Shown here piece by piece: positions 1 through 31,319 of a stretch of DNA of 64,000 bases (positions are counted from its first letter, which is position 1; every line of letters starts with the position of its first letter). The notes below the pieces were generated by a model. That model saw only the letters and a program-made list of their open reading frames with translations, ran no database searches and was not told the origin of the DNA. This DNA is from Mayamaea pseudoterrestris (lineage: Eukaryota). The DNA lies in contig BROI01000002.1 in assembly GCA_027923505.1 (NCBI GenBank), forward strand, positions 2,418,001 through 2,482,000, written 5' to 3'. The position numbers and the translations under genes were made by a program.

Positions 1-3000
1 ATTCTGGACCTGTCAAACGCCCCATGCCTCCCATCCCGCCAAACATGTCCAGGGTATGCCATTGACGGGTGCATAGTTTCAATGGTGCAAAAAGGACTGC
101 CTGGAGGCTGACACCATGGGTACGGCCTCACTGTGGGTATCCAACACCACAAGTTGTCGATTCTGTTTAAACGCCCCATGCCCTGGCCACCCAAATACCC
201 AATGAGTCAGGCCAAACATGTCCAGGGTATGCCATTGATCAAGTGCTTAGTCTCAAATGGTGCAAAAAGGACTGCCTGGAGGCCTGACACCATCGGCAAA
301 AGGGTTCCCACAATTTGTGATTCACCTACCCCCATCCCTGCCACCCAAACCCCAATGAGTCGGCCAAACATGTCCAGGGTGCCATTGACAGGTGAGGGCA
401 GAGTCTCAAATGGTACAAAAACGACTGCCTGGAGGCTCACCATGGTTTGTGCCCTCCGCGGTGGGTATGGCCAACACCACAAATGCCCCATGCCCAACAA
501 AACATTGAGTCCGGCAAAACATGTCCAGGGTGTGCCATTGACATGAGGATGGTTGAAATGGTGCAAAACGGATCTGGAGTGCCAACACCATCTGCAACAT
601 GGGGTGTGGGCCAACACCCAAATTATGGAATCATACAACAATGCCCGGTCCCCTGATCACCAACAACCCAATGAGTCCAGCAAAACATGTCCAGGGTGTG
701 CCATTGATAGGATGGTCTGACATGGTACAAAACGGACTGCTCGAGGTTCCAGAGAATGGTCTACAAGATGGGTGTGGCCAACACCCCCAATTATGGAATC
801 ATACCACTACAATGCCACATGCCCTAGCCACACAACAACCCAATGAGTCAGGCAAAACATGTCCAGGGTGTGCCATTGACATGAGGATGGGCTGAAATGG
901 TGCAAAACGGACTGCCTGGAGGCCTACACCATCTGCAAAATGGGTGTGGCCAACACCCCAAATTAAGAAATCATACCACTACAATGCGTCCCCGATCACC
1001 AACAACAATGAGTCATGCAAAAAGGTCTGAAGAGGATGGTCTAATGGACAAAAGATGCTGAGGCCTACAGATGGAATGGTCTACAAGATGGGTGTGGCCA
1101 ACACCCCAAATCAAGGAATCAACCACACAATGCCCCATGCCATGGCCACCCAACAACCCAATGAGTCAGGCAAAACATGTCGGGTGTGCCATTATGAGGA
1201 TGGGACAAAAGGATGTCCGAGGCTACACCACTGCAAAGTGGCCAAACCCCAAATAATGGAACATACCACACAGCCGAGCACCAACAACCAATGAGTCATG
1301 CAAAACATGTCCGGTGTGCATAAGAGGTTACTGGACAAAACGAGAGGCCACAGCTGAATGGTTACAATTGGCCAACACCCCAAATTATGGAATCATACCA
1401 CTACAATGCCATGCCCTGGCCACCCAACAACCCAATGAGTCAGGCAAAACATGTCCCGGTGTGCATTGACACGGATGGGCTGACCTGGTGCAAAACGGAG
1501 CTGAGGCCTCACCTCTGCAATGGGTGTGGCCAACACCCAAATTATGGAATCATACCACTACAATGCCCGCCCTGATCACCCAAAACCCAATGAGTATGCA
1601 AAACATGTCCAGGGTGTGCATTGACATGAGGATGGTCTGACATGGCACAAAACGGACTGCCTGGAGGTACAGATGAAGTAAGGGTGTGGCAACACCCCAA
1701 ATTATGGAATATACCACTAAATGCCTATGCCCTGGCCACCAACAACCAATGAACAGGCAAAACATGTCCAGGGTGTGCATTGACATGAGGATGGGCTGAA
1801 TGGTGCAAAACGGACTGCCGGGAGGCCTACACCATCTGCAAAATGGGTGTGGCCAACACGGCAAATTATGGAATCATACCACTACAATGCCCCGTCTCCT
1901 GATCACCCAACAACCCAATGAGTCATGCAAAACATGTCCAGGGTGCCACAATAAGGATGGTCTGACATGGACAAAACGAGGGGGGCACAGATGGAATGGT
2001 CCACAAGAGGTGTGGCCAACACCCCAAATTATGGAATCATACCACTACAATGCCCATGCCCTGGCCACCCAACAACCCAATGAGTCCGGCAAAACATGTC
2101 CAGGGTGGCCATTGAAGAGGATGGGCTGAAATGGTGCAAAACGGACTGCCTGAGGCCTACACTATCTGCAAAATGGGTGTGGCCAACACCCAAATTATGG
2201 AATCATACCACAGCCCGCCGATCACCCAAAACAATGAGTCATGCAAAACATGTCCAGGGTGTGCCATTGACATGAGGATGGTCGGACATGGTACAAAACG
2301 GACTGCTGGAGGCTCAGATGGATGGCTACAAGATGGGTGTGGCCAACACCCCAAATTATGGAATCATACCACTCACAATGCCCCATGCTGGCCACCCAAC
2401 AACCAATGAGTCAGGCAAAACATGTCCAGGGTGTGCATGACATAATGGGTGAAAGTGCAAAAGGACTGGGAGGCCACACCTCTGCAAAATGGGTGTGGCC
2501 AACACCCCAAATTATGGAATCATACCACTACAATGCCCCGTCCCCTGATCACCCAACAACCCAATGAGTCATGCAAAACATGTCCAGGGTGTGCCATTGA
2601 CATGAGGATGGTCTGACATGGTACAAAACGGACTGCCTGGAGGCCTACAGCATGGAATGGTCTACAAGATGGGTGTGGCCAACACCCCAAATTGTGGAAT
2701 CATACCACTACAATGCCCCATGCCCTGGCCACCCAACAACCCAATGAGTCAGGCAAAACATGTCCAGGGTGTGCCATTGACATGAGGATGGGCTGAAATG
2801 GTGCAAAACGGACTGCCTGGAGGCCTACACCATCTGCAAAATGGGTGTGGCCAACACCCCAAATTATGGAATCATACCACTACAATGCCCCGTCCCCTGA
2901 TCACCCAACAACCCAATGAGTCATGCAAAACATGTCCAGGGTGTGCCATTGACATGAGGATGGTCTGACATGGTACAAAACGGACTGCCTGGAGGCCTAC

Positions 3001-3900
3001 AGCATGGAATGGTCTACAAGATGGGTGTGGCCAACACCCCCAAATTGTGGAATCATACCACTACAATGCCCCATGCCCTGGCCACCCAACAACCCAATGA
3101 GTCAGGCAAAACATGTCCAGGGTGTGCCATTGACATGAGGATGGGCTGAAATGGTGCAAAACGGACTGCCTGGAGGCCTACACCATCTGCAAAATGGGTG
3201 TGGCCAACACCCCAAATTATGGAATCATACCACTACAATGCCCCGTCCCCTGATCACCCAACAACCCAATGAGTCATGCAAAACATGTCCAGGGTGTGCC
3301 ATAGACATGAGGATGGTCTGACATGGTACAAAACGGACTGCCTGAGGCCAACAGCATGGAATGGTCTACAAGATGGGTGTGGCCAACACCCCAAATTATG
3401 GAATCATACCACTACAATGCCCCATGCCCTGGCCACCCAACAACCCAATGAGTCAGGCAAAACATGTCCAGGGTGTGCCATTGACATGAGGATGGGCTGA
3501 AATGGTGCAAAACGGACTGCCTGGAGGCCTACACCATCTGCAAAATGGGTGTGGCCAACACCGCAAATTATGGAATCATACCACTACAATGCCCCGTCCC
3601 TTGATCACCCAACAACCCAATGAGTCATGCAAAACATTTCCAGGGTGTGCCATGGACTTGAGGTTGGTCTGACATGGTAAAAAACGGACTGCCTGAGGCC
3701 TACAGCATGGAATGGTCTACAAGATGGGTGTGGCCAACACCCCAAATTATGGAATCATACCACTACAATGCCCCATGCCCTGGCCACCAACAACCCAATG
3801 AGTCAGGTAAAACATGTCCAGGGTGTGCCATTGACATGAGGATGGGCTGAAATGGTGCAAAACGGACTGCCGGAGGCCTGGCTAATTATCTGCAAAATGG
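1..3900. repeat. Tandem satellite 1: alternating ~180-bp (A) and 172-bp (B) monomers forming a ~352-bp dimer; runs off the window start
   Basis: TGTCCAGGGTGTGCCAT starts at 2581, 2761, 2933, 3114 and 3286 (spacings 180, 172, 181, 172). A carries CAGCATGGAATGGTCTACAAGATG; B carries CACCATCTGCAAAATG. Region 1-540 holds more diverged monomers and 540-2560 is indel-rich. Confidence 0.95.
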
Positions 3901-4398
3901 GGGATCGCCAATGGTAGTAAGAGCGCTCTGGGGCAAAGGCGCAGGGAGCTCCATTTGCCAGAGTCCAGTGGCCGGACACCGAGCGCCACTCAGGATGAGC
4001 TCTTCTTGATAATGCACGAGGACTCGTTCCTTGTCAAGGGAAACGAGGCAGCCTGCATCACAAAGTGTGCCAAGGGATAGTAGTGAGTGAGTTGATAAAG
4101 CAGGAACAATATGAGCTTTAGTGGCCGACTCGGGCAGGCCGGGGATGTTGAGCGTTGCCTCATGAGTTGAATGCATGAGGGTGCCGTTGGGAGTTTGAAT
4201 TGCAAGGGGGTGTGTCGTTGCAATCTTGTTTAAGATGGGAGCGCTAACGGTGACAAAGTGGGCAGAGGCGCCACTGTCAGCTATGAGGGTAAAAGTAGGA
4301 TTGGCGGGAGGACCAGTGATAGAGGATAACGAAAAACAAGTACTATAAGCATGTGACATGTTGCTATAGGTGTTATCAATCACTGGCGTCCCTCCATC
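3901..4398 (-). pseudogene. pol: Truncated pol (aspartic protease region), in frame with gag after a single TGA
   Basis: LIADSGASAHF protease motif, SLLSLGTLCDAGC and ATGLWQMEL; cut at the satellite junction. Confidence 0.8.
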
Positions 4399-5544
4399 TC
4401 AGCTGCGAGGGTTGGCCGGGTTGCGGGGACTCATCTCGGTAAGGGTGCCACCCATGGTATTGTCAGCAGTCGCCGTGCTGACATGGTTGGGACCAGGATT
4501 CTGGCAAGTAGCGCTAGTGTGGCGGTAGTTGAGGCCGAAGCCATGCGTGTGGCAATAGTGGCGGGCGTGTGGTGAAGCGATGGGCGCTGGCGTAGGCGTG
4601 ATAGCTGGAGCAGGCGTGGTGGTTGTCGCAGGGGTGACATGAGTAGGTGCGGCCGTGGTACCGTTGCGAAGAGCTGCAAGATCACGCTGATGCTGCCCAT
4701 TTTGACGACGGAGATGGGTAAGTTCAGCTTCAGCTGCAGCTAGAGCGGCAATATGCGTGTGGTCTTGGTAGCCAGCGGCACCGGCAGTTTGTTTTTCGCG
4801 GCGGGTCTTGTTGGCCTCGTTGAAACGGGCCATGAGAATGGCGAGCGTGCGCATGGGCACAGGGAATTCGTGTTCAAATCGTGCAACAGCTTCGTTGAAG
4901 ACACCACTGTTTTCGAGGACGGTAAGTGTGTAGCGGACGATGGTTCTTTCACTGAGGGTTTCGCCGGCTGCGGTGGTAAAATCGGTGACTTCAGTGATGC
5001 GACTCCAAATTGTTTCGATGGGTTCGTTGGGATCCCAGGGGGTATGGAGGCGCTGAATGTTTGCATCTTGTTTGGGACCCGTGATGTTGGCGTAGGTAAG
5101 TAACAAATGCGTGAGCAGTTGAAGGGTAGTGATGGTGGCGTAGTTGTGAAGGGCGTGCTTCAAAACCGAGTAGTACGTTTCAGGGACGGCGGCCATGATG
5201 AGCGACTTGAGTGCTACGTCAGCAAGGCGCATCGTGTTGAAATCATTAAGCGCATCTTTGTACTTGCGGTTGCGTTCAGTAAGGGCGTTGGTAGGCATGT
5301 CGTCATCAGCATCAGCAAGAGCGGCTGGCTGAGCAGGCATGACGAAAGGAGTGTCGGGGTGACGGTAGGCGTATTGAGCAGGTTGGAGGCAAAGGAAATC
5401 GTGACCGAAAGTTTCGTCGCCATTACGGAGAGGGATCTTGCGGGCTTGTTCACAGAGAGCGTTGTTGAGTAGGAGCAGATTAGCGTAGCAGGGTTCAGTG
5501 GTGAGTGCGGGCAAGGGCGTCAACTCAGGAAGTTTGATCAACAT
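4399..5544 (-). CDS. gag: Retrotransposon Gag (element 1)
   Basis: Part of the 415-aa ORF, first ATG at 5544. Contains WDPNEPIETIWSRI, a Pro/Thr-rich linker and a C-x2-H-x7-H-x4-C knuckle (YCHTHG...HTSATC). Confidence 0.8.
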   Translation of the reverse strand: MLIKLPELTPLPALTTEPCYANLLLLNNALCEQARKIPLRNGDETFGHDFLCLQPAQYAYRHPDTPFVMPAQPAALADADDDMPTNALTERNRKYKDALNDFNTMRLADVALKSLIMAAVPETYYSVLKHALHNYATITTLQLLTHLLLTYANITGPKQDANIQRLHTPWDPNEPIETIWSRITEVTDFTTAAGETLSERTIVRYTLTVLENSGVFNEAVARFEHEFPVPMRTLAILMARFNEANKTRREKQTAGAAGYQDHTHIAALAAAEAELTHLRRQNGQHQRDLAALRNGTTAAPTHVTPATTTTPAPAITPTPAPIASPHARHYCHTHGFGLNYRHTSATCQNPGPNHVSTATADNTMGGTLTEMSPRNPANPRS

Positions 5545-5676
5545 CGTGAGAAGCTTTGGAGGCACGGAGCAGGGAAGATGAGTAAGCAAGAAGAAGGGTG
5601 GGTGGAACAATTCTGTTGAAGGGCCGCAAGGTACTACAGCGGACACTCGAAGCAGACTAGTTCAATAACGTTGAAT

Positions 5677-5807
5677 TGTTACATTAATGAGATCATGGCG
5701 GTAAGCGCCAGGAGACTCTTGCTAATCGAGTGGCTGAGCACAGCGATGGAATGGATGGTGGACAGAATAGGATATTAATGAGTCATGGCGAGTGCGTATT
5801 CATAACA
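5677..5807 (-). repeat. Putative 5' LTR of the CoDi I-like element (~131 bp)
   Basis: TGTTA...TAACA terminal inverted repeat on the minus strand. The inner boundary is uncertain because no second LTR is available for comparison. Confidence 0.5.
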
Positions 5808-8800
5808 TTTTGGGCACCTACAGGGCTTGCTGTAGGGGCGTTTGAATGTCACGGCATCTGCGGGCAGAGACTGGTGACAAGTTGTCACCAAATACATTGA
5901 CATCACCTGAGACACCAGCCAAGCCTACCATCTTGTAGCGCAGCCTGAAAAATGATGTTGGAACCATTCTGGTGTATTTTGGGCACCCACAGGGCTTCCT
6001 GTAGGGGCGTTTGAGTGTCACGGCATCTGCGGGCTGAGACTGGTGACAAGTTGTCACCAAATACATTTCCATCCCCTGAGACACCAGCCAAGCCTACCAT
6101 CTTGTAGCGCAGCCTGAATAATGATGTTGGCACCATTCTGGTGTATTTTGGGCACCCACAGGGCTTGCTTTAGGGGCGTTTGAATGTCACGGCATCTGCA
6201 GGCTGAGACTGGTGACAAGTTGTCACCAAATACATTTCCATAACCTGAGACACCAGCCAAGCCTACCATCTTGTAGCGCAGCCTGAATAATGATGTTGGC
6301 ACCATTCTGGTGTATTTTGGGCACCTACAGGGCCTCCTGTAGGGTTGTTTGAATGTCACGGCATCTGCGGGCAGAGACTGGTGACAAGTTGTCACCAAAT
6401 ACATTGCCATCCCCTGAGACACCAGCCAAGCCTACCATCTCGTAGCGCAGCCTGAAAAATGATGTTGGAACCATTCTGGTGTAATTTGAGCACCCACAGG
6501 GCTTCCTGTAGGGGCGTTTGAATGTCACGGCATCTGCAGGCTGAGACTGGTGACAAGTTGTCACCAAATACATTGCCATCCCCTGAGACACCAGCCAAGC
6601 CTACCATCTTGTCGCGCAGCCTGAATAATGATGTTGGCACCATTCTGGTGTATTTTGGGCACCTACAGGGCTTGCTGTAGGGGCGTTTGAATGTCACGGC
6701 ATCTGCGGGCAGAGACTGGTGACAAGTTGTCACCAAATACATTGCCATCCCCTGAGACACCAGCCAAGCCTACCATCTTGTAGCGCAGCCTGAATAATGA
6801 TGTTGGCACCATTCTGGTGTAATTTGGGAATTTACAGGGCTTGCTGTAGGTGCGTTTGAATGTTACGGCATCTGCGGGCTGAGACTGGTGACAAGTTGTC
6901 ACCAAATACATTGCCATCCCCTGAGACACCAGCCAAGCCTACCATCCTGTAGCGCAGCCTGCAAAAGGATGTTGGCACCATTCTGGTGTATTTTGGGCAC
7001 CTACAGGGCTTGCTGTAGGGGCGTTTGAATGTCATGGCATCTGCGGGCAGAGACTGGTGACAAGTTGTCACCAAATACATTGTCATCCCCTGACACACCC
7101 TCCAAGCCTACCATCTTGTAGCGCAGCCTGAATAATGATGTTGGCACCATTCTGGTGTATTTTGGGCACCTACAGGGCTTGCTGTAGGGGCGTTTGAATG
7201 TCACGGCATCTGCGGGCAGAGACTGGTGACAAGTTGTCACCAAATACATTGCCATCCCCTGAGACACCAGCCAAGCCTACCATCTTGTAGCGCAGCCTGA
7301 ATAATGATGTTGGCACCATTCTGGTGTATTTTGGGCACCTACAGGGCTTGCTGTAGGGGCATTTGAATGTCACGGCATCTGCGGGCTGAGACTGGTGACA
7401 AGTTGTCACCAAATACATTGCCATCCCCTGAGACACCAGCCAAGCCTACCATCTCGTAGCGCAGCCTGAATAATGATGTTGGCACCATTCTGGTGTATTT
7501 TGGGCACCTACAGGGCTTCCTGTAGGGTTGTTTGAATGTCATGGCATCTGCGGGCAGATGCTGGTGACAAGTTGTCACCAAATACATTGCCATCCCCCGA
7601 GACACCAGCCAAGCCTACCATCTTGTCGCGCAGCCTGAATAATGATGTTGGCACCATTCTGGTGTATTTTGGGCACCTACAGGGCTTCCTGTAGGGGCGT
7701 TTGAATGTCACGGCATCTGCGGGCAGAGACTGGTGACAAGTTGTCACCAAATACATTGACATCACCTGAGACACCAGCCAAGCCAACCATCTTGTAGCGC
7801 AGCCTGAATAATGATGTTGGAACCATTCTGGTGTATTTTGGGCACCCACAGGGCTTCCTGTAGGGGCGTTTGAGTGTCACGGCATCTGCGGGCTGAGACT
7901 GGTGACAAGTTGTCACCAAATACATTTCCATCCCCTGAGACACCAGCCAAGCCTACCATCTTGTAGCGCAGCCTGAATAATGATGTTGGCACCATTCTGG
8001 TGTATTTTGGGCACCCACAGGGCTTCCTGTAGGGGCGTTTGAATGTCACGGCATCTGCAGGCTGAGACTGGTGACAAGTTGTCACCAAATACATTTCCAT
8101 AACCTGAGACACCAGCCAAGCCTACCATCTTGTAGCGCAGCCTGAATAATGATGTTGGCACCATTCTGGTGTATTTTGGGCACCTACAGGGCCTCCTGTA
8201 GGGTTGTTTGAATGTCACGGCATCTGCGGGCAGAGACTGGTGACAAGTTGTCACCAAATACATTGACATCACCTGAGACACCAGCCAAGCCTACCATCTT
8301 GTAGCGCAGCCTGAATAATGATGTTGGAACCATTCTGGTGTATTTTGGGCACCCACAGGGCTTCCTGTAGGGGCGTTTGAGTGTCACGGCATCTGCGGGC
8401 TGAGACTGGTGACAAGTTGTCACCAAATACATTTCCATCCCCTGAGACACCAGCCAAGCCTACCATCTTGTAGCGCAGCCTGAATAATGATGTTGGCACC
8501 ATTCTGGTGTATTTTGGGCACCCACAGGGCTTCCTGTAGGGGCGTTTGAATGTCACGGCATCTGCAGGCTGAGACTGGTGACAAGTTGTCACCAAATACA
8601 TTGCCATAACCTGAGACACCAGCCAAGCCTACCATCTTGTAGCGCAGCCTGAATAATGATGTTGGCACCATTCTGGTGTATTTTGGGCACCTACAGGGCC
8701 TCCTGTAGGGTTGTTTGAATGTCACGGCATCTGCGGGCAGAGACTGGTGACAAGTTGTCACCAAATACATTGCCATCCCCTGAGACACCAGCCAAGCCTA

Positions 8801-11800
8801 CCATCTCGTAGCGCAGCCTGAAAAATGATGTTGGAACCATTCTGGTGTAATTTGGGCACCCACAGGGCTTCCTGTAGGGGCGTTTGAATGTCACGGCATC
8901 TGCAGGCTGAGACTGGTGACAAGTTGTCACCAAATACATTGCCATCCCCTGAGACACCAGCCAAGCCTACCATCTTGTAGCGCAGCCTGAATAATGATGT
9001 TGGCACCATTCTGGTGTTTTTTAGGCAACCACAGGGCTTGCTGTAGGGGCGTTTGAGTGTCACGGCATCTGCGGGCAGAGACTGGTGACAAGTTGTCACC
9101 AAATACATTGCCATCCCCGGAGACACCAGCCAAGCCTACCATCTTGTAGCGCAGCCTGAATAATGATGTTGGCACCATTCTGGTGTAATTTGGGAATTTA
9201 CAGGGCTTGCTGTAGGGGCGTTTGAATGTCACGGCATCTGCGGGCTGAGACTGGTGACAAGTTGTCACCAAATACATTGCCACCCCCTGAGACACCAGCC
9301 AAGCCTACCATCTTGTAGCTCAGCCAGAATAATGATGTTGGCACCATTCTGGTGTATTTTGGGCACCTACAGGGCTTGCTTTAGGGGCGTTTGAATTTCA
9401 GGCATCTGCGGGCTGAGTCTGGTGACAAATTGTCACCAAATACATTGCCATCCCCTGAGACACCAGCCAAGCCTACCATCTTGTAGCGCAGCCTGAATAA
9501 TGATGTTGGCACCATTTTGGTGTATTTTGGGCACCCACAGGGCTTGCTGTAGGGGCGTTTGAATGTCACGGCATCTGCGGGCTGAGTCTGGTGACAAGTT
9601 GTCACCAAATACATTGCCATCCCCTGTGACACCAGCCAAGCCTACCATCTTGTAGCGCAGCCTGAATAATGATGTTGACACCATTCTGGTGTATTTTGGG
9701 CGCCCACAGGGCTTGCTGTAGGGGCAATTGATTGTCACGGCATCTGCAGGCTGAGACTGGTGACAAGCTTGCCATCCCCTGAGACACCAGCCAAGCCTAC
9801 CATCTTGTACCGCAGCCTGAATAATGATGTTGGCACCATTCTGGTGTAATTTAGGCACCTACAGGGCTTGCTGTAAGGGCATTTGAAGGTCATGGCATCT
9901 GCGGGCTGAGACTGGTGACACGTTGTCACCAAATACATTGCCATCCCCTGAGACACCAGCCAAGCCTACCAGTTGATAGCGCAGCCTGAAAATGATGTTG
10001 GCACCATTCTGGTGAAATTAGGGCACCTACAGGGCTTGCTGTAGGGGCGTTTGAATGTCACGGCATCTGCGGGCAGAGACTGGTGACAAGTTGTCACCAA
10101 ATACATTGCCATCACCTGAGACACCAGCCAAGCCTACCATCTTGTAGCGCAGCCTGAAGAATGATGTTGGAACCATTCTGGTGTATTTTGGGCACCCACA
10201 GGGCTTCCTGTAGGGGCGTTTGAATGTCACGGCATCTGCGGGCTGAGACTGGTGACAAGTTGTCACCAAATACATTGCCATCCCCTGAGACACCAGCCAA
10301 GCCTACCATCTTGTAGCGCAGCCTGAATAATGATGTTGGCACCATTCTGGTGTATTTTGGGCACCTACAGGGCTTGCTGTAGGGGCGTTTGAATGTCACG
10401 GCATCTGCGGGCTGAGACTGGTGACAAGTTGTCACCAAATACATTGCCATCCCCTGAGACACCAGCCAAGCCTACCATCTTGTAGCGCAGCCTGTATAAT
10501 GATGTTGGCACATTCAGATTTGGGCACCAGGGCGTTTGAATGTCACGGCATCTGCGGGCAGAGACTGGTGACAAGTTGTCACCAAATACATTGCCATCCC
10601 CTGAGACACCAGCCAAGCCTACCAACTTGTAGCGCAGCCTGAGAAATGATGTTGGAACCATTCTGGTGTATTTTGGGCACCCACAGGGCTTCCTGTAGGG
10701 GCGTTTGAATGTCACGGCATCTGCAGGCTGAGACTGGTGACAAGTTGTCACCAAATACATTGCCATCCCCTGAGACACCAGCCAAGCCTACCATCTTGTA
10801 GCGCAGCCTGAAAAATGATGTTGGAACCATTCTGGTGTACTTTGGGCACCCACAGGGCTTCCTATAGGGGCGTTTGAATGTCACGGCATCTGCGGGCAGA
10901 GACTGGTGACAAGTTGTCACCAAATACATTGCCATCCCCTGAGACACCAGCCAAGCCTACCATCTTGTAGCGCAGCCTGAATAATGATGTTGGCACCATT
11001 CTGGTGTATTTTGGGCACCTACAGGGCTTCCTGTAGGGTTGTTTGAATGTCATGGCATCTGCGGGCAGATGCTGGTGACAAGTTGTCACCAAATACATTG
11101 CCATCCCCCGAGACACCAGCCAAGCCTACCATCTTGTCGCGCAGCCTGCATAATGATGTTGGAACCATTCTGGTGTATTTTGGGCACCCACAGGGCTTCC
11201 TGTAGGGGCGTTTGAATGTCATGGCATCTGCAGGCTGAGTCTGGTGACAAGTTGTCACCAAATACATTGCCATCCCCTGAGACACCAGCCAAGCCTACCA
11301 TCTTGTAGCGCAGCCTGCATAATGATGTTGGAACCATTCTGGTGTATTTTGGGCACCCACAGGGCTTCCTGTAGGGGCGTTTGAATGTCATGGCATCTGC
11401 AGGCTGAGTCTGGTGACAAGTTGTCACCAAATACATTGCCATCCCCTGAGACACCAGCCAAGCCTACCAACTTGTAGCGCAGCCTGAATAATGATGTTGG
11501 AACCATTCTGGTGTATTTTGGGCACCCACAGGGCTTCCTGTAGGGGCGTTTGAATGTCACGGCATCTGCGGGCTGAGACTGGTGACAAGTTGTCACCAAA
11601 TACATTGCCATCCCCTGAGACACCAGCCAAGCCTACCATCTTGTAGCGCAGCCTGAATAATGATGTTGGCACCATTCTGGTGTATTTTGGGCACCTACAG
11701 GGCTTCCTATAGGGGCGTTTGAATGTCACGGCATCTGCGGGCAGAGACTGGTGACAAGTTGTCACCAAATACATTGCCATCCCCTGAGACACCAGCCAAG

Positions 11801-13866
11801 CCTACCATCTTGTAGCGCAGCCTGAATAATGATGTTGGCACCATTCTGGTGTATTTTGGGCACCTACTGGGCCTGCTGTAGGGTTGTCTGAATGTCATGG
11901 CATCTGCGGGCAGAGACTGGTGACAAGTTGTCACCAAATACAATGCCATCCCCTGAGACACCAGCCAAGCCTACCATCTTGTAGCGCAGCCTGAATAATG
12001 ATGTTGGCACCATTCTGGTGTATTTTGGGCAACCACAGGGCTTCCTGTAGGGGCGTTTGAATGTCACGGCATCTGCAGGCAGACACTGGTGACAAGTTGT
12101 CACCAAATACAATGACATCCCCTGAGACACCAGCCAAGCCTACCATCTTGTAGCGCAGCCTGAATAATGATGTTGGCACCATTCTGGTGTATTTTGGGCA
12201 CCTACAGGGCTTGCTGTAGGGGCGTTTGAATGTCACGGCATCTGTGGGCTGAGACTGGTGACAAGTTGTCACCAAATACATTGCCATCCCCTGAGACACC
12301 AGCCAAGCCTACCATCTTGTAGCGCAGCCAGAATAATGATGTTGGCACCATTCTGGTGTATTTTGGGCAACCACAGGGCTTACTGTAGGGGCGTTTGAAT
12401 GTCACGGCATCTGCAGGCAGAGACTGGTGACAAGTTGTCACCAAATACAATGCCATCCCCTGAGACACCAGCCAAGCCTACCATCTTGTAGCGCAGCCTG
12501 AATAATGATGTTGGCACCATTCTGGTGTATTTTGGGCACCTACAGGGCCTCCTGTAGGGTTGTTTGAATGTCACGGCATCTGCGGGCAGAGACTGGTGAC
12601 AAGTTGTCACCAAATACATTGCCATCCCCTGAGACACCAGCCAAGCCTACCATCTTGTAGCGCAGCCAGAATAATGATGTTGGCACCATTCTGGTGTATT
12701 TTGGGCACCTACAGGGCTTGCTGTAGGGGCGTTTGAATGTCACGGCATCTGCGGGCTGAGACTGGTGACAAGTTGTCACCAAATACATTGCCATCCCCTG
12801 AGACACCAGCCAAGCATACCATCTTGTAGCGCAGCCTGCATAATGATGTTGGCACCATTCTGGTGTATTTTGGGCACCTACAGGGCTTGCTGTAGGGGCG
12901 TTTGAATGTCACGGCATCTGCGGGCTGAGACTGGTGACAAGTTGTCACCAAATACATTGCCATCCCCTGAGACACCAGCCAAGCCTACCATCTTGTAGCG
13001 CAGCCTGAATAATGATGTTGGCACCATTCTGGTGTATTTTGGGCACCTACAGGGCTTGCTGTAGGGGCGTTTGAATGTCACGGCATCTGCGGGCTGAGAC
13101 TGGTGACAAGTTGTCACCAAATACATTGCCATCCCCTGAGACACCAGCCAAGCCTACCATCTTGTAGCGCAGCCTGAATAATGATGTTGGCACCATTCTG
13201 GTGTAATTTGGGCACCTACAGGGCTTGCTGTAGGGGCGTTTGAATGTCACGGCATCTGCGGGCTGAGACTGGTGACAAGTTGTCACCAAATACATTGCCA
13301 TCCCCTGAGACACCAGCCAAGCATACCATCTTGTAGCGCAGCCTGAATAATGATGTTGGCACCATTCTGGTGTATTTTGGGCACCTACAGGGCTTGCTGT
13401 AGGGGCGTTTGAATGTCACGGCATCTGCGGGCTGAGACTGGTGACAAGTTGTCACCAAATACATTGCCATCCCCTGAGACACCAGCCAGGCCTACCATCT
13501 TGTAGCGCAGCCGGAAAAATGATGTTGGCACCATTCTGGTGTATTTTGGGCACCCACAGGGCTTGCTGTAGGGGTGTTTTGACTGTCACGGCATGTGCGG
13601 GCTGAGACTGGTGACAAGTTGTCACCAAATACATTGCCATCCCCTGAGACACCAGCCAAGCCTACCATCTTGTAGCGCTGCCGGAAAAATGATGTTGGCA
13701 CCATTCTGGTGTGTTACAGGGCCTGCATGGCGTAATGTGACGGCATCTGCGGGCAGAGACTGGTGACAAGGTGTCACCGAATACATTGGTATCCCCTGAG
13801 ACACCAGCCAGGCATATCATCTGTAGCGCGCTAAAAGTCACCATTCTGACATGGGGCACCACAGGG
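5808..13866. repeat. Tandem satellite 2, 169-bp monomer, ~48 copies (heterogeneous block with higher-order structure)
   Basis: Monomer TTTTGGGCACCTACAGGGCTTGCTGTAGGGGCG...TGGTGACAAGTTGTCACCA...CACCATTCTGGTGTA recurs every 169 bp; the ORF track repeats at 169-bp steps. Confidence 0.98.
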
Positions 13867-14195
13867 TGACACAATATTATTGAGTTGAGTTGACCTGCGT
13901 CTTATGACAAGACGGTTAGCTACCTGTGTTTTGTATGCATTTAATCCTGTGCAGGGTTGAGTCACACTTGTGACCGAATCCTCACATACATGAGTGAAAT
14001 CGCTGACGATCGAGGCGTGAACCTCGACCGTGAACCCAGTGAGAACGAGAAAGAAGCGCACGAGTAGAGTAGCGAGTAACATGCACTATTCTAGCAATTG
14101 AGTTTGTTTGTTTGCTTTACGCTGGACGAAGAGGTTGATCGCTCCGAGTCCATTGTAGTCGCTGGAATAAAGGTTCGTCTGATATTATCGTGTCA
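13867..14195 (+). repeat. 5' LTR (329 bp) of element 2
   Basis: Begins TGACACAATATTAT and ends ATATTATCGTGTCA (12/14 terminal inverted repeat). AATAAA at 14166; followed directly by the PBS-like GATTAACAGTC. Confidence 0.8.
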
Positions 14196-14412
14196 GATTA
14201 ACAGTCTTGCTAGCTTGTCTTGACCTGAGAGAGCTGTGCGAAAGAGAGAGTGAAAGAATCGAGAAATTGAGAGAGAAAGAGCAGATTCCTTGCGGCGTCG
14301 TCAATCCGAATACTTGGCACGAGCGCGTAGAACAGGATCGTATAAGGCTCGACTGCATTGAGAGCGGTTGTTGTGTAAGAAAGGACTTGCGGAAAGCGAG
14401 GTATTCACTATC

Positions 14413-15654
14413 ATGGTTGCGATTACTGCGGAAGCTTTGCAGCTTCTCTGCACGAACGTTTTCGGACGAGACATCCAAGAAGCGTTCTTGTTTTGGAATG
14501 TAACCACCACTACCCAGATGTTGAGATTGACCAAGGAGCAACTTGAAGCCCCCTACTGGGTCGACAGAGCCGCCATCCAAGCTGGCGTTGGACAACCTGA
14601 AGGCGCGCAACCCGACGATGCGCCCGGCGACGAGCCGGCCGAGGAACCGGCCGAGGAACAAGCAGCCGCCGCCCCAGAACGATACGAAACGACATTAGCA
14701 CCAGTCTACGTGAACCTTGTCCTCGATGCATGCGAATGGTTTACCATGCACGACGGACCCCCGAACACCAAGAAGTGGGCGTTGCTTGATTTAGGCAAGC
14801 TCGAGCGATACCAAGCGATTCTCGCGGAACAAGAAATCGCGCGGAAGCGTGAAGAAGGATACTACGTACTCGAGTCCAAGAAGAAGCAAGCCGAGCTACT
14901 TGCCAAGCAACTCGAAAATGAGACCATCAAGGCTGAGAAGGCCGAAAAGGAAGAAGATGCCAAGGGTCGTTTCTCGAACCTCAAGACGAAACGAGACTAC
15001 AAGGACTACAAAACGTTCCAACATCCCCACGCGTGGTTGAGTTGGAGCGCGTCTACCAAGGCAATCGCCAAGCTCCATGGCTGTTCTAACGTGCTCGACA
15101 GCAAGTACGTACCAGTCACGGAAGAAGAGAAATTAGAGTTCGAGAATCAGCAAGTCTTCATGTACACTGCGTTTCGCAATTGTCTCGAAGTCCCTGGACA
15201 CCAGTCGCTCCTGATGAAGTACGGCGACAAGTCTGACGCTCAAGGCGTCTATCGCGAACTCGCGACCAAGTTTGGTTCCGGCGAGTTAGCTACCATCCAA
15301 GCGAACGAACTGCAAGCCAAGCTTGCGACGATTCGCCTAGATTCGACCTGGACGAAAGGACACTACAAGTTCCTAAACTACATCGAACAGCTCATGAAGA
15401 ATCTCGAAGAGTTCCGTCCTGGAGTGACGGATGACAAGAAAAAGTACTACTGGCTCCGAGCTGCAGTGGAAGGCGACGAAGAATTCGGCCCCACATGCAC
15501 GACGTTCGACCAGCACTTGCAATTTGAGCGACGACGCATCATCAGTGCAAATGGTGGCCCGAACGCCGTCGTGACGGAAGATTATGACTGTCTTTTCGAC
15601 ATGTTGTCGCAGCAGGCTCTGCCGGCGTCGACAACAAGAACGCAAGTTGAATAA
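14413..15654 (+). CDS. gag: Retrotransposon Gag (element 2); C-terminus frameshifted near 15620 and continuing into an RG-rich tail
   Basis: Part of the 428-aa ORF. Motifs NVLDSKYVP, FENQQVFMY, SDAQGVYREL and IRLDSTW resemble diatom copia Gag; position is between LTR/PBS and protease. Confidence 0.75.
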   Translation: MVAITAEALQLLCTNVFGRDIQEAFLFWNVTTTTQMLRLTKEQLEAPYWVDRAAIQAGVGQPEGAQPDDAPGDEPAEEPAEEQAAAAPERYETTLAPVYVNLVLDACEWFTMHDGPPNTKKWALLDLGKLERYQAILAEQEIARKREEGYYVLESKKKQAELLAKQLENETIKAEKAEKEEDAKGRFSNLKTKRDYKDYKTFQHPHAWLSWSASTKAIAKLHGCSNVLDSKYVPVTEEEKLEFENQQVFMYTAFRNCLEVPGHQSLLMKYGDKSDAQGVYRELATKFGSGELATIQANELQAKLATIRLDSTWTKGHYKFLNYIEQLMKNLEEFRPGVTDDKKKYYWLRAAVEGDEEFGPTCTTFDQHLQFERRRIISANGGPNAVVTEDYDCLFDMLSQQALPASTTRTQVE

Positions 15655-17035
15655 GGGCAAGAAGAACGCCGACCGCCAAGCGAACAACGCGAACACTTCC
15701 GGACAAGGACGTGGTAATGGGCGCGGTTCCGGTCGTGGCGGGGGCGCGGCGGCCAAGGCGGGCCCGGCGGGGGGCGAGACGGTGGGCCGCGGTTCCCAAG
15801 TGAGCCGTGGTTCCGGAGGGGCGAGGCTCTTCCGCGCCCTACCAGCCGCGATGCGCAAGCGCATCGGGAGCGATTCCCTGGTGATTATCTGAACTTTGAA
15901 CAGTTGTTGCAGAACCCCTGGTCGTACATGTCGTACGAACGACTCGGCCGACACGAGGGCGAATACGCTCAGCTCATGGCTCGGCGAAGCCGTCCCAAGA
16001 CCCGCCACGACAAGGCGCGCGAACAATGGCAACCGCGCGAATAACCAGCAGTCACAAGCGGCTGCCTCGGTGCCTGGTACAATCCTGTATCAGAATGGCG
16101 CTGTCTCGATCGCCCCGGCGACAGCCACTCAAGGTGCACCGGATGACATGATTAGATCTTTCCTTGCGGACGCCGCGTCGTCTCCCTCAAGCTCGAATAA
16201 CACCCAGCAGAGTTTATGGGAGGCGACGGGCGTCGGTACCGCGCAATGGTATCGGTGCGCTACACTGTGAATCGAGCTCGCAGCAACGAGACCCGCCAAG
16301 GATCGCTGATTGACCGGTGCGAACGGTGGACTCGCTGGAAGCGATATGAGAATCTTGAGTACTACCAACCACCGTGTAACGTGACAGGTTTGGCGACCAC
16401 ACGGTTCGCGACCTCCAAGTCGGAACTGGCGTCGCATTGATTGAGACTCCGGACTGGACCCATTATCGGTCAGTTCAACCAGTATGCTTTTGCGACGGTG
16501 CTGTATCCATTCATGCACCATCGCAGCTTCGTTCGTTCGGCCATCTGATCGACGGCGTTGCTCGCTCCCAGAATGGAACACAAGCCATTGTCACCAGTTG
16601 TGGCAAGACCATCCCCTTAGCGATCCGCGACGGTTTGCCTCGAATGGATATCGTCCGCCCGGCGCCGAGTTGGAAATGTATCCGGCGGTCATTTTCTCTG
16701 CGGACACCCTTTGGGATCCGGCGGACTTGGACAATGAATGGAACGAAGAAGAACTTGAGTTTAATCGTCACCTCGACGAATTGGAAGAAACCCACGGTTT
16801 CGTCGACGCCCGCATGGGATGACTTCGGCGACGCCACCTACCGGAACAACATGAATTCAGTGGAACGTTGGTGCAGTATGTCGATCGCAATCAGGCTGAT
16901 ACGACGCGCCAAGCCAATCGACGCATAATGCCACAGAACCTGACTACCAAGCGCTGACCCTACCTTGGCTACACCTCGAGCGAGTCAAGCGCACCATTAA
17001 GAATACGACACAACTTTTCCGTGCATCGGCACACC

Positions 17036-20000
17036 CCCAAGCATACCATCTTGTAGCGCAGCCTTAATAATGATGTTGGCACCATTCTGGTGTATTTTGG
17101 GCTCCTACAGGGCTCGCTGTACGGGCGTTTGAATGTCACGGCTTCTGCGGGTTGAGACTGGTAACAAGTTGTCACCAAATACATTGCCATCCCCTGAGAC
17201 ACCAGCCAAGCCTACCATCTTGTAGCGCAGCTTGAATAATGATGTTGGCACCATTCTGATCTCACAGGGCCTGCTGTAGGGGCGTTTGAATGTCACAGCA
17301 TCTGCGAGGGCTGAGACTGGTGACAAGTTGTCACCAAATACATTGCCATCCCCTGAGACACCAGCCAAGCCTACCATCTTCTAGCGCAGCCTGAATAATG
17401 ATGGTGGCACCATTCTGGTGTATTTTGGGCACCTACAGGGCTTGCTGTAGGGGCGTTTGAATGTCACGGCATCTGCAGGATGAGACTGGTGACAAGTTGT
17501 CACCAAATACATTTCCATCCCCTGAGAAACCGCCAAGCCTACCATCTTGTAGCGCAGCCTGAATAATGATGTTGGCACCATTCTGGTGTATTTTGGGCAC
17601 CTACAGGGCTTGCTGTAGGGGCGTTTGAATGTCACGGCATCTGTGGGCTGAGACTGGTGACAAGTTGTCACCAAATACATTGCCATCCCCTGAGACACCA
17701 GCCAAGCCTACCATCTTGTAGCGCAGCCTGAATAATGATGTTGGCACCATTCTGGTGTATTTTGGGCACCTACAGGGGGGCGGGCGTTTGAATGTCACGG
17801 CATCTGGGGGCTGAGACTGGTGACAAGTTGTCACCAAATACATTGCCATCCCCTGAGACACCAGCCAAGCCTACCATCTTGTAGCGCAGCCTGAATAATG
17901 ATGTTGGCACCATTCTGGTGTATTTTGGGCACCTACAGGGCTTGCTGTAGGGGCGTTTGAATGTCACGGCATCTGGGGGATGAGACTGGTGACAAGTTGT
18001 CACCAAATACATTGCCATCCCCTGAGACACCAGCCAAGCCTACCATCTTGTAGCGCAGCCTGAATAATGATGTTGGCACCATTCTGGTGTATTTTGGGCA
18101 CCTACAGGGCTTGCTGTAGGGCGTTTGAATGTCACGGCATCTGCGGGCTGAGACTGGTGACAAGTTGTCACCAAATACATTGCCATCCCCTGAGACACCA
18201 GCCAAGCCTACCTTCTTGTAGCACAGCCTGAATAATGATGTTGGCACCATTCTGGTGTATTTTGGGCACCTACAGGGCTTGCTGTAGGGGCGTTTGAATG
18301 TCACGGCATCTGCGGGCTGAGACTGGTGACATGTTGTCACCAAATACATTGCCATCCCCTGAGACACCAGCCAAGCCTACCTTCTTGTAGCACAGCCTGA
18401 ATAATGATGTTGGCACCATTCTGGTGTATTTTGGGCACCTACAGGGCTTGCTGTAGGGCGTTTGAATGTCACGGCATCTGCGGGCTGAGACTGGTGACAA
18501 GTTGTCACCAAATACATTGCCATCCCCTGAGACACCAGCCAAGCCTACCATCTTGTAGCGCAGTCTGAATAATAATGTTGGCACCATTCTGGTGTTTTTT
18601 GGGCACCTACAGGGCTTGCTGTAGGGGCGTTTGAATGTCACGGCATCTGCGGGCTGAGACTGGTGACAAGTTGTCACCAAATACATTGCCATCCCCTGAG
18701 ACACCAGCCAAGCCTACCCTCTTGTAGTGCAGCCTAAATAATGATGGAGGCACCATTCTGGTGTATTTTGGGCACCTACAGGGCTTGCTGTAGGGGCGTT
18801 TGAATGTCATGGCATCTTTGGGCTGAGACTGGTGACAAGTTGTCACCAAATACATTGCAATCCCCTGAGACACCAGCCAAGCCTACCATCTTGTAGCGCA
18901 GCCTGAATAATGATGTTGGCACCATTCTGGTGTATTTTGGGCACCTACAGGGCTTGCTGTAGGGGCGTTTGAATGTCACGGCATCTGCGGGCTGAGACTG
19001 GTGACAAGTTGTCACCAAATACATTGCCATCCCCTGAGACACCAGCCAAGCCTACCATCTTGTAGCGCAGCCTGAATAGTGATGTTGGCACCATTCTGGT
19101 GTATTTTGGGCACCTACAGGGCTTGCTGTAGGGGCGTTTGAATGTCACGGCATCTGCGGGCTGAGACTGGTGACAAGTTGTCACCAAATACATTGCCATC
19201 CCCTGAGACACCAGCCAAGCCTACCATCTTGTAGCGCAGCCTGAATAATGATGTTGGCACCATTCTGGTGTATTTTGGGCACCTACAGGGCTTGCTGTAG
19301 GGGCGTTTGAATGTCACGGCATCTGCGGGCTGAGACTGGTGACAAGTTGTCACCAAATACATTGCCATCCCCTGAGACACCAGCCAAGCCTACCATCTTG
19401 TAGCGCAGCCTAATTAATGATGTTGGCACCATTCTGGTGTATTTTGGGCACCTACAGGGCTTGCTGTAGGGGCGTTTGAATGTCACGGCATCTGCGGGCT
19501 GAGACTGGTGACAAGTTGTCACCAAATACATTGCCATCCCCTGAGACACCAGCCAGGCCTACCATCTTGTAGCGCAGCCTGAATAATGATGTTGGCACCA
19601 TTCTGGTGTATTTTGGGCACCTACAGGGCTTGCTGTAGGGGCGTTTGAATGTCACGGCATCTGCGGGCTGAGACTGGTGACAAGTTGTCACCAAATACAT
19701 TGCCATCCCCTGAGACACCAGCCAAGCCTACCATCTTGTAGCGCAGCCTGAATAGTGATGGAGGCACCATTCTGGTGTATTTTGGGCACCTACAGGGCTT
19801 GCTGTAGGGGCGTTTGAATGTCACGGCATCTGCGGGCTAAGACTGGTGACAAGTTGTCACCAAATACATTGCCATCCCCTGAGACACCAGCCAAGCCTAC
19901 CATCTTATAGCGCAGCCTGAATAATGATGGAGGCACCATTCTGGTGTATTTTGGGAACCTACAGGGCTTGCTGTAGGGGCGTTTGAATGTCACGGCATCT

Positions 20001-21140
20001 GCGGGCTGAGACTGGTGACAAGTTGTCACCAAATACATTGCCATCCCCTGAGACACCAGCCAAGCCTACCATCTTGTAGCGCAGCCTGAATAATGATGTT
20101 GGCACCATTCTGGTGTATTTTGGGCACCTACAGGGCTTGCTGTAGGGCGTTTGAATGTTACAGCATCTGCGGGCTGAGACTGGTGACAAGTTGTCACCAA
20201 ATACATTGCCATCCACTGAGACACCAGCCAAGCCTACCATCTTGTAGCGCAGCCTGAATAATGATGTTGGCACCATTCTGGTGTATTTTGGGCACCTACA
20301 GGGCTTGCTGTAGGGGCGTTTGAATGTCACGGCATCTGCGGGCTGAGACTGGTGACAAGTTGTCACCAAATGCATTGCCATCCCCTGAGACACCAGCCAA
20401 GCCTACCATCTTGTAGCGCAGCCTGAATAATGATGTTGGCACCATTCTGGTGTATTTTGGGCACCTACAGGGCTTGCTGTAGGGGCGTTTGAATGCCACG
20501 GCATCTGCGGGCTGAGACTGGTGACAAGTTGTCACCAAATACATTGCCATCCCCTGAGACACCAGCCAAGCCTACCATCTTGTAGCGCAGCCTGAATAAT
20601 GATGTTGGCACCATTCTGGTGTATTTTGGGCACCTACAGGGCTTGCTGTAGGGGCGTTTGAATGTCACGGCATCTGCGGGCTGAGACTGGTGACAAGTTG
20701 TCACCAAATACATTGCCATCCCCTGAGACACCCGCCAAGCCTACCATCTTGTAGCGCAGCCTGAATAATGATGTTGGCACCATTCTGGTGTATTTTGGGC
20801 ACCTACAGGGCTTGCTGTAGGGGCGTTTGAATGTCACGGCATCTGCGGGCTGAGACTGGTGACAAGTTGTCACCAAATACATTGCCATCCCCTGAGACAC
20901 CCGCCAAGCCTACCATCTTGTAGCGCAGCCTGAATAATAATGTTGGCACCATTCTGGTGTATTTTGGGCACCTACAGGGCTTGCTGTAGGGGCGTTTGAA
21001 TGTCACGGCATCTGCGGGCTGAGACTGGTGACAAGTTGTCACCAAATACATTGCCATCCCCTGGGACACCAGCCAAGCCTACCATCTTGTAGCGCAGCCA
21101 GAATAATAATTTTGGCACCATTCTGGTGTTTTTTGGGCAC
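17036..21140. repeat. Satellite 2 resumes: ~24 highly homogeneous 169-bp monomers
   Basis: Near-identical monomers; runs of identical 88-aa spurious ORFs at 169-bp steps. Confidence 0.98.
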
Positions 21141-22390
21141 CTACAGGGCTATGGGCTTTTGAAAATCATGGCATCTGATGGCTGAGACTGGTGACAAGTT
21201 GTCACCAATCACATTGCAGTCTACTGAGGGACCAGCCAGGCAATTCATCTTGTAGCGCAACTGAAATAAGGATGTTAGCACAATTCTGGCTTGATTTGAG
21301 CATACGCATGGCTCTATGTCTGGGCATTTGAAAATCACGGCATCTGCTGGCTGAGACTGGTGACAAGTTGTCACCAATAACATTGCAGTCTACTGAGGGA
21401 CCAGCCAGGCAACTCATCTTGTAGCGTACCTGAAATAAGGATGTTAGCACCATTCTGGCTTGATTTGGGCATACGCATGGCTCTAGGTATGGGCATTTGA
21501 AAATCATGGCATCTGCTGGCTGAGACTGGTGACAAGTTGTCACCAATCACATTGCAGTCTATTGATGGACCAGCCAGGCAACTTATCTTGTAGCGCACCT
21601 GAAATAAGGATGTTAGCACCATTCTGGCTTGATTTGGTCATACGCATGGCTCAAGGTATGAGCATTTGAAAATTATGGCATCTGCTGGCTGAGACTGGTG
21701 ACAAGTTGTCACCAATTGCATTGCAGTCTACTGAGGGACCAACCAGGCAACTTATCTTGTAGCGCACCTGAAATAAGGATGTTAGCACCATTCTGGCTGG
21801 ATTTGGGCATACACATGGCTCTAGGTATGGGCAATTGAAAATTACGGCATCTGCTGGCTGAGACTGGTGACAAGTTGTCACCAATCACATTGCAGTCTAC
21901 TGAGGGACCACTCATGCAACTTATCTTGTAGCGCACCTAAATTAACATTGTTAGCACCATTCTGGCTTGATTTGGGCATACACATTGCTCTAGGTATGGG
22001 CATTTGAAAATCTTGGCATCTGCTGGCTGAGACTGGTGACAAGTTGTCACCAATCACATTGCAGTCTACTGAGGGACCAGCCAGGCAACTCATCTTGTAG
22101 TGCACCTGCAATAAGGATGTTAGCACCATTCTGGCTTGATTTGGGCATACACATGGCTCTAGGAATGGTCATTTGAAAATCATGGCATCTGCTGGCTGAG
22201 ACTGGTGACAAGTTGTCACCAATCACATTGCAGTCTACTGACAGACCAGCCAGGCAACTCATCTTGTAGCGCACCTAAAACAAGGATGTTATCACCATTC
22301 TAGCTTGATTTGGTCATACGCATGGCTCTAGTTATGGGCATTTGAAAAGCCTGGCATCTGCTGGCTATTGTCACCAGTCACATTGCCGTC
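21141..22390. repeat. Satellite 2b: diverged 169-bp variant, ~7 copies at the array edge
   Basis: Same period and the same GAGACTGGTGACAAGTTGTCACCAA core, but a distinct consensus (CACATTGCAGTCTACTGAGGGACC, GCATACGCATGGCTCTAGGTATGG). Confidence 0.95.
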
Positions 22391-22396
22391 CATGGT

Positions 22397-22660
22397 GGTG
22401 CTACAGTGTGTGGCCTTCAAAGACTACCCGCAATAGTCCTGTCCCATGAATTCTATTCTGGCTATCCTTGGGGATACATATGTGGTGAGATTGGTGCATC
22501 AATCAATTTCAGCTCACGTGTAGCATCAGTTGTTTGGGAGGGCAAAGATTCACACAGTAACCAGCTACACGGTGCTACAGTGTGTGGCCTTAACGACTAC
22601 CCCCAATAGTCTTGTTCCATGAATTCTGTTCTGGCTATGCTTGGGGACACATAAGCGGTA
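22397..22660. repeat. ~1.5 copies of an unrelated 174-bp repeat
   Basis: GGTGCTACAGTGTGTGGCCTT at 22397 and 22571, followed by ~90 bp of similar sequence. Confidence 0.8.
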
Positions 22661-22863
22661 CCACAATTATAGTGCGCACTAGGCGTACGTATGCACATTA
22701 TACCGGTAGCACATTGAGTATCGAAGCGACGTTCTTACCGGTACTGGCGGCGATAGGTTCGTGCGGTGTGCGACCATTGCAATTCCATGCCCATCGCTTC
22801 GCATCCCTTCCGACAAAATCTTATTGCGTGGCACCATTGGAACTTACCAACAAGGCATTAAGT

Positions 22864-24456: not shown

Positions 24457-24528
24457 AATGACAAAGACTTTGTTGGCTATGACATAAAAGCCGATATTTT
24501 AACAAGTTAAATCCAATCCAGCTGTAGT

Positions 24529-26940: not shown

Positions 26941-26956
26941 TACTATCGTTTATGGT

Positions 26957-27113
26957 GTAGTCCAATAACTTTGAAAAAAATCAAAGTTATTGGCACTGTA
27001 GCATTTAGAGTAGTCCAAAAACTTTGAAAATCAAAGTTATTGGCACTGTGGATCAAACAGTAGTCCAAAAACTTTGATTTTCAAAGTAATTGGCACTGTG
27101 GTTTTTATAGTAG
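26957..27113. repeat. Three tandem ~50-bp units, each a hairpin, in the divergent alr/OSCA intergenic region
   Basis: GTAGTCC at 26957, 27010 and 27060. The first unit has perfect 13-bp arms CCAATAACTTTGA/TCAAAGTTATTGG. Confidence 0.9.
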
Positions 27114-30552: not shown

Positions 30553-31319
30553 CACAGTTGATATGTATACAAAGGCATCGAATTGATTGTATATACGCCC
30601 TTATTCATCTTCAAAGCTTTATAAAGATCACCACTGCATTCTGTTAGTATGCTGGGCACATATAAAGCCGCATAGGCTGCTGCGTAGAAAGTCGACTACT
30701 ACGAAGTAAATCATTGAGTAATTATTACAGGCTGATGTCTTTACGTGCACATTACCCTTCCGGTGAGGCACATGGCCACCAACTGGATTTCATCATGGGC
30801 ATCATGATGAAGTTCATCCGAATGACCAAGCATGCCCAACTGCGCAATGTTCTTCAGATTAGGCTTGGACAGACCGTTACTGAACAATCGAGCTGAAATA
30901 ATAACGGTCTGTCCAAGCACTCGCGCCGCACCTATCACCAGAGAAGCCAATGGACGTGCGCCATATTGTTAGGGAAGAGTGGGTTGATGAGAGCGAGCTC
31001 ATTGCATGAAACACTGCTCACCGTTGATGATTCTCTGTGGCAACCCATCTTGTTCGTACAGCAATTGCTCGACAAGATCTTGGAACTCTGACATCATTCA
31101 TGAGGCTGCTTTACAAGATGGTACGCCTGCCTTAGCGTAGCGCGAGAGAAATGTAAGTATAGGTTGTTGCGATGACAATTGTAAATCTTCGCTAGCGCAG
31201 TGAAATAAATTGCCGCTGTTTATCGCTACGACTCGGACAGCTAGCTGAATAAGAGCACGGAATGATAATTACGAGGTTCTACAGTTAAGTTTATCCAGCG
31301 GCGCATCGCTTGTAACGCA

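Follow-up and report, generated by a model that had tools for sequence, protein, structure and literature searches.

The first 22 kb of a 64,000-nucleotide stretch of DNA from the diatom Mayamaea pseudoterrestris (NCBI GenBank assembly GCA_027923505.1, contig BROI01000002.1, positions 2,418,001 to 2,482,000 of the forward strand; this whole stretch is hereafter called the window, and coordinates refer to it) consist largely of two families of tandem satellite. We consider it probable that they form an interstitial island of constitutive, CpG-methylated satellite heterochromatin, one of many sites at which these two abundant families reside. No host genes are present at 35-22659; the block is made up of tandem satellites and retroelement pieces, and it stops abruptly against ordinary genes. 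The original prediction for this DNA held that more than 22 kb lack host genes, and the list of open reading frames (ORFs) agrees with it: in 1-22593, before the first host gene ORF at 22594, no ORF of at least 150 amino acids (aa) lies outside two inserts. A tRNA and Rfam search found no match in the block. The GC content is 46-54% throughout, the lowest 500-bp value in 1-22 kb being 45.6%. As one of the satellite arrays runs off the window start, the left boundary of the domain must lie outside the window, and 22 kb is a minimum size.

Architecture and CpG decay of the satellite arrays

Tandem Repeats Finder (TRF) detected arrays at 494-3879, where the periods are 172 and 351 bp, and at 5807-22301, where they are 169 and 338 bp; a blast search with one unit of each family recovered satellite A over 38-3878 and satellite B over 5807-13829 and 17031-22301. 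The best match common to the two is 11 bases long, which indicates that the families are unrelated. The three repeat periods that had been predicted are recovered, measured as a dimer of 172 and 179 bp, a monomer of 169 bp and a spacing of 173-174 bp between the copies of a third repeat.

The satellite A array lies at 35-3911 on the plus strand, as delimited by TRF, blast of a dimer, alignment of its halves and an nhmmer monomer map. With a profile made from six satellite A monomers, all 24 nhmmer matches fell on the plus strand at 35-3878, and blast placed the end of the array at 3911. The unit is a 351-bp dimer in which 172- and 179-bp monomer types alternate. The array is most homogeneous at 2481-3878 and decays toward the window start: dimers at 2649-3700 are 97-99% identical to the dimer at 3001, and in the blast of one dimer identity drops to 75-80% near the window start.

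Satellite B, with a monomer of 169 bp, gave 82 matches to its nhmmer profile, 81 of them on the plus strand in 5807-22391. Its left block (5807-13866, plus strand) contains 48 monomers of 169 bp with a mean pairwise identity of 95%, the 47 at 5807-13712 being 93.5-100% identical to the consensus. The right block (17031-21129, plus strand) comprises one partial and 24 full monomers, the latter (17094-21129) at 96-100% to the consensus. A 3.2-kb insert separates the two blocks, and the monomers on either side of it are decayed, at 88% for the last of the left block and 91% for its counterpart. Furthermore, columns 13, 23 and 60 of the monomer are polymorphic in the left block, where they produce a weak 338-bp periodicity, and monomorphic in the right block. 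Since the two halves differ in their variants, homogenisation would have run separately on each side after the interruption arose, and the insert between them would be older than the last homogenisation.

Beyond the right block, a diverged outer layer of satellite B extends over 21131-22391 on the plus strand and comprises seven monomers and a partial relic at 22309-22391. Against the core consensus the seven monomers (21131-22303) show 76-83% identity, and against their neighbours 88-95%. A relic of the third repeat follows at 22397-22659 (plus strand), where a repeat search found two partial copies (22397-22486 and 22571-22659) that are 87-100% alike over 21+68 bases. The predicted order, from homogeneous satellite B through a diverged layer and a relic to genes, is thus reproduced by the monomer identities and coordinates. 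The one profile match on the minus strand is an isolated 44-bp stretch at 31089-31132, among the genes; its similarity to columns 111-154 of satellite B is weak (E 1.7e-5), and chance or a stray relic would probably account for it.

The satellites are strongly depleted in CpG. The observed/expected (o/e) ratio of CpG is 0.15-0.25 in satellite A, 0.32 and 0.34 in the left and right parts of the satellite B core, and 0.17 in the diverged layer; it reaches 0.95 in the first insert, 1.25 in the second and 1.09 in the genes at 22594-64000. The TpG/CpA o/e ratio is 1.63-1.82 in the satellites as against 1.16 in the genes. Substitutions were counted in the 73 satellite B monomers that precede the diverged layer. 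At the 8 CpG positions they amount to 39 transitions and 3 transversions, or 0.072 changes per site and monomer, as compared with 92 transitions and 186 transversions, or 0.024 per site and monomer, at the remaining 161 positions. Per site, change at the CpGs of satellite B is hence about threefold more frequent than elsewhere in the monomer, and is nearly always a transition. Judged by this pattern of substitution, the depletion is the footprint of deamination of methylated CpG, which would have acted on the family consensus as well as on the array copies. The two inserts, which are not depleted, would therefore be younger than the satellite families or escape methylation.

One segment of satellite B stands apart from this decay. 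A 29-bp box (consensus columns 57-85, found in a dyad scan; example copy at 5863-5891, no strand assigned) holds a perfect palindrome, its 9-bp arms separated by a single base. It is unchanged between the consensus sequences of the core and of the diverged layer, which differ at 38 of 169 columns, and the seven diverged monomers show no mismatch at its 203 positions, as compared with 53 mismatches at 938 positions outside it. A run as long as the box appeared in 286 of 20000 shuffles, in a test that was devised after the data had been seen. The conservation is a hint, no more, of constraint or of biased conversion.

Truncated retroelement inserts

The first insert, TE1, lies between the two satellites at 3886-5806 on the minus strand and was recognised from its translation, its relatives and pol proteins that bear the RVT_2 domain. 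It comprises a gag ORF (4399-5661, 420 aa), a single TGA stop and a protease ORF (3886-4398, 170 aa, with a DSGA motif), and it ends directly after the protease, so that integrase and reverse transcriptase (RT) are missing. A search for a pair of long terminal repeats (LTRs) in TE1 found none. Read through the stop, which was entered as X, the translation has 5263 relatives at E<=0.001, mostly stand-alone gag ORFs of 350-400 aa. Pfam assigned no family to TE1, nor any at E<=0.001 to 15 of its relatives, three of which gave only chance-level rows at E<=10.

The affiliation of TE1 was instead approached through profiles and longer relatives. A profile built on 119 stand-alone gag relatives recognises its gag at E 1.7e-101, and over 143 aa its protease shares 46% identity (E 2e-37) with that of P0158, a 1417-aa pol protein with PF07727 (RVT_2). 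The relatives P0004, P0006 and P0052 extend past the protease into what reads as an integrase-like region, and a search with this region of P0006 gave 288 long proteins at E<=1e-5, with PF07727 present in many of the 120 that were listed. The integrase assignment is based on the reading of these sequences together with the RVT_2-bearing matches. When the 120 listed pol proteins were compared with the window by tblastn, 119 matches were obtained, all inside 3907-5517. Among the matches listed, the named sources of pol relatives are all diatoms (Fragilaria, Cylindrotheca, Fistulifera and Nitzschia). Gag and protease homology to Ty1/copia elements are both present, and the LTRs, integrase, RT and RNase H of a complete element are absent. 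On this homology, TE1 is what remains of the 5' part of a diatom Ty1/copia element after truncation.

The second insert, located at ~13867-17030 within satellite B, is a 3.2-kb retroelement-like fragment on the plus strand, delimited by its translation and by the satellite phase at its junctions. Reading of its translation reveals an intact gag-like ORF of 430 aa (14362-15654), beyond which broken frames encode an RGG-rich stretch and a protease-like motif. LTRs were searched for in it and none were found, and the phase of satellite B shifts across it from about column 20 to about column 105. With its junctions out of satellite phase, and with neither a target-site duplication nor an LTR, the insert suggests later deletion rather than a fresh integration.

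The classification of this second insert is less clear. Pfam returned no family for it, even at E<=10; no longer relatives of the gag-like ORF or of an ORF at 16380-16925, and no related metagenome loci, were found. Comparison with the TE1 gag profile and with the 120 copia pol proteins gave no match, nor did tblastx against TE1 and against a Copia-like piece at 52.9-56.3 kb. In the Atlas, its 30 nearest clusters are unnamed (score 0.96), and the named leads, PF22936 and PF13976 (copia-type protease and pre-integrase), are sub-threshold at scores of 0.85-0.88. The insert is best described as retroelement-like, with its Copia identity unproven. Two embedded Copia lineages had been predicted; the prediction stands for TE1 as a Ty1/copia element, while the insert at ~13867-17030 is left unclassified, without demonstrated Copia homology.

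The two inserts resemble one another in their extent. Both retain a 5' part (leader, gag and protease) and stop at about the protease/integrase boundary (3886-3911 and 16990-17030), in opposite orientations. This common breakpoint may be coincidental, mark a site where breakage is favoured, or point to a non-autonomous gag-protease derivative. Capture of an unfinished cDNA at a break was considered as their origin and set aside, as both are 5' parts and an incomplete minus-strand cDNA would keep the 3' parts of an element.

Abundance of the satellites and chromosomal setting

Part of 20000-27000 is represented in eight public runs, every one a contig set and none of them recorded as RNA. Four of them (X1, X2, X4 and X5) were compared over 3530-6150, X4 and X5 being labelled as the same organism as X2. 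The numbers of contigs placed on this interval were 80276 for X1, 14481 for X2, 21 for X4 and 44 for X5. The summed word depth of contigs, which is no measure of copy number, was 1.1-5.0 million in X1 and 0.25-0.98 million in X2 for the satellite A flank, and 4.2-13.3 million and 0.5-1.3 million, respectively, for the satellite B flank. The interior of TE1 (3882-5553) reached only 325-1560 in X1 and 55-370 in X2, and the satellite flanks thus stand 10^3-10^4 times above it in these two sets. Contig depth of this order in X1 and X2 implies that both families far exceed the 24 + 81 monomers of the window in variants and in copies. Satellites A and B are probably present at very high copy number genome-wide, and more than 99% of each family probably lies outside this window.

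In X4 and X5, most of the TE1 interior is without contig cover. In both sets, contigs link satellite-A-like pieces to unrelated sequence and share a loose end at 3866. Samples, or types of library, may vary markedly in how much satellite they contain. Within TE1, the part from the gag start to satellite B (5554-5806) has a summed contig depth of 2930-6252 in X1, compared with 325-1560 for the interior, the raised depth of this flank being noted at 5554-5729. It could represent what is left of an LTR or leader, in higher abundance than the coding part of TE1.

To the right, the block gives way to gene-dense DNA from 22594 onward. The first host gene ORF (22594-24456, plus strand) belongs to the 26S proteasome non-ATPase subunit family (PF10508, Proteasom_PSMB, E 8.4e-20), and it is accompanied by genes for an alanine racemase, a CSC1/OSCA-type channel, a RecQ helicase, a Brr2-type helicase, Nup54 and a lipin-like protein. 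At least 578 kb of the same piece extend leftward of the block and 41 kb of genes lie rightward. Runs of two or more telomere hexamers (TTAGGG/CCCTAA) were found on neither strand of the window. With no telomere repeat and at least 578 kb to the left, the island is interstitial.

Among these genes, a Copia-like integrase-RT fragment was observed at 52902-56317 on the minus strand, with rve at 18.9 bits and RVT_2 at 30.6 bits, both just below the Pfam cut-offs, and with its RT split by a frameshift. Retroelements are hence not confined to the block. Around this fragment, the Nup54 region is directly duplicated (51103-52169 versus 56683-57735, 98%); 52572-52812 and 57961-58201 are 100% identical, and an ORF at 57162-57746 is a second partial Nup54 match. 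The 241-bp identical repeats at 52572 and 57961 were considered as LTRs and rejected, because they belong to the 1.7-kb duplication of the Nup54 region. The segment 51103-58201 could be a retroelement-associated segmental duplication or an artefact of assembly or haplotype.

Alternative explanations and comparison with known systems

The layered block can be accounted for by a simple history. Unequal exchange and gene conversion would expand and homogenise the arrays, and homogenisation would keep their interiors uniform as their edges decayed, leaving layers. Retrotransposons would have inserted into the arrays, and later array turnover would have trimmed them to 5' pieces. For the heterochromatin island we infer present-day methylation and silencing, this mechanism of turnover, and the genome-wide copy number. 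Several points weigh against the heterochromatin island, or limit it. The CpG footprint records past history, not the present state. Summed contig depth does not equal copy number, and the abundance differs between contig sets, the satellite flanks reaching summed depths of only 2.5-146 in X4 and X5. None of the listed contigs bridges a satellite-insert junction, and these joins are known from the assembly alone. Moreover, a heterochromatin island and a centromere are not mutually exclusive, and the abundance, the nucleosome-length monomers, the layering and the palindromic box are also expected of a satellite centromere.

The block could accordingly be read as the satellite-type regional centromere of its chromosome, a kind not known to have been described in diatoms, or the immediate flank of one, with CENH3 on the homogeneous cores of satellite A or B and with the decayed layers as former cores displaced outward; we hold this to be rather unlikely. 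Tandem nucleosome-length monomers (169-179 bp), a dimeric higher-order repeat and a homogeneous core (94-100%) with older layers (76-83%) are indeed all present, with the youngest repeats in the middle and older ones on both sides. Two independent contig sets (X1 and X2) contain both families in great abundance, and the commonest tandem repeat of a genome often resides at the centromere. The palindromic 29-bp box is kept across layers and could be a protein-binding site, and retroelement inserts are present; among stramenopiles, the centromeres of Ectocarpus and Phytophthora sojae carry centromere-specific retrotransposons, according to the available part of PMC11541908. On the other side, the block has no low-GC core, with its 500-bp minimum of 45.6% and no 100-bp box at <=32%, and decay at the edges is expected of any tandem array. 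A related view, in which a repeat-based centromere is distributed over many CENH3-binding islands of ~20-30 kb spaced a few hundred kb apart, as in Rhynchospora, and the block is one of these, seems to us very improbable. The size of the island (at least 22 kb) is near that of Tyba arrays and the satellites are very abundant, but Phaeodactylum scaffolds have single localised centromeric regions, as far as the available text of 10.1101/096016 goes. Taken together, there is a small chance that this diatom loads CENH3 on such satellite islands, either as a regional centromere or as distributed units, with the palindromic box as a protein-binding site.

A subtelomeric origin, which the original prediction had offered as an alternative, is disfavoured. 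Satellite arrays that adjoin telomeres are common, and a 98-bp subtelomeric satellite is described for Ectocarpus in the accessible portion of PMC11541908; here, however, no telomere hexamer run occurs in the window, at least 578 kb lie to the left and 41 kb of genes to the right, and we regard this explanation as highly implausible. It is also unlikely, in our estimation, that the layered order is partly an artefact of assembly, with collapsed or misjoined arrays and inserts brought in from elsewhere. The copies of both families apparently far exceed the 24 + 81 assembled monomers, which makes collapse or mis-joining plausible, no listed contig runs across the junctions, and the junctions of the second insert are out of phase; as for the missing contigs, contig sets cannot show that a junction is absent. 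Yet the monomers adjoining the junctions are more decayed than the interiors, as at true array edges, and the halves of satellite B differ in their variants, which would be unexpected for one array cut by a false join.

With the heterochromatin island as the favoured explanation, the block can be set beside the centromeres described in other diatoms. Those of Phaeodactylum tricornutum, mapped by chromatin immunoprecipitation (ChIP), are short, low in GC (<33% over 500 bp) and repeat-free, in the sections available of Diner et al. (10.1101/096016), and those predicted in Fistulifera solaris have 36-42% GC and are not highly repeated, in what is available of 10.1101/2021.11.10.468027. The block is likewise from a diatom and likewise intergenic, but it has 46-54% GC and consists wholly of tandem repeats and retroelement pieces. 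By the Phaeodactylum-type measure of at least 500 bp at a GC below ~33% with clusters of 100-bp boxes at <=32% (10.1101/096016, from the same sections), no centromere of that kind is apparent, as the only 100-bp box of the window at <=32% GC is found at 33601, among genes; the absence of repeats that marks such centromeres is not seen either, the block being built of tandem repeats. According to those sections, the simple Phaeodactylum centromeres underlie diatom episome technology and a proposal for the acquisition of foreign DNA (10.1101/096016). If satellite islands did load CENH3, they would represent a type of centromere unlike these short, AT-rich and repeat-free ones. A genome apparently rich in CpG-decayed satellites thus raises the question as to whether all diatoms share the Phaeodactylum type. 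The block also lends itself to questions of how constitutive heterochromatin is organised in diatoms and whether it is a target of Copia elements. Under the ordinary interpretation, too, the two satellite consensus sequences and the 29-bp box provide probes for fluorescence in situ hybridization (FISH), ChIP and methylation work. Our literature searches found no paper on nucleosome-sized satellite heterochromatin or satellite centromeres in a diatom.

In the plant Rhynchospora, Tyba arrays are on average ~18-20 kb long and ~375-400 kb apart, and their DNA is highly methylated, as given in the available part of PMC10954556. These methylated islands of ~20 kb among genes are similar in size to the block, for which we also propose methylation; in contrast, Tyba is a single family that is bound by CENH3 on every unit, and diatoms are without evidence of holocentricity. 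As regards the inserts, diatom Ty1/copia elements with two ORFs, presumably those named CoDi and CoDi-like, offer the nearest comparison. Their order of protease, integrase and RT fits the relatives of TE1, whereas TE1 itself is without LTRs, integrase and RT and has one in-frame stop.

Layered satellite centromeres and pericentromeres are well known in plants and animals, the 178-bp repeat of Arabidopsis and human alpha satellite being examples. The block shares with them nucleosome-length monomers, a dimeric higher-order repeat, a homogeneous core with diverged layers, retrotransposon inserts, a footprint of CpG methylation and high abundance. It differs in that tens of kb are assembled here rather than hundreds of kb to megabases, and in that two unrelated families and the relic of a third repeat lie side by side. 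On the ordinary reading, the block is a fresh diatom example of this well-known kind of chromosome region.

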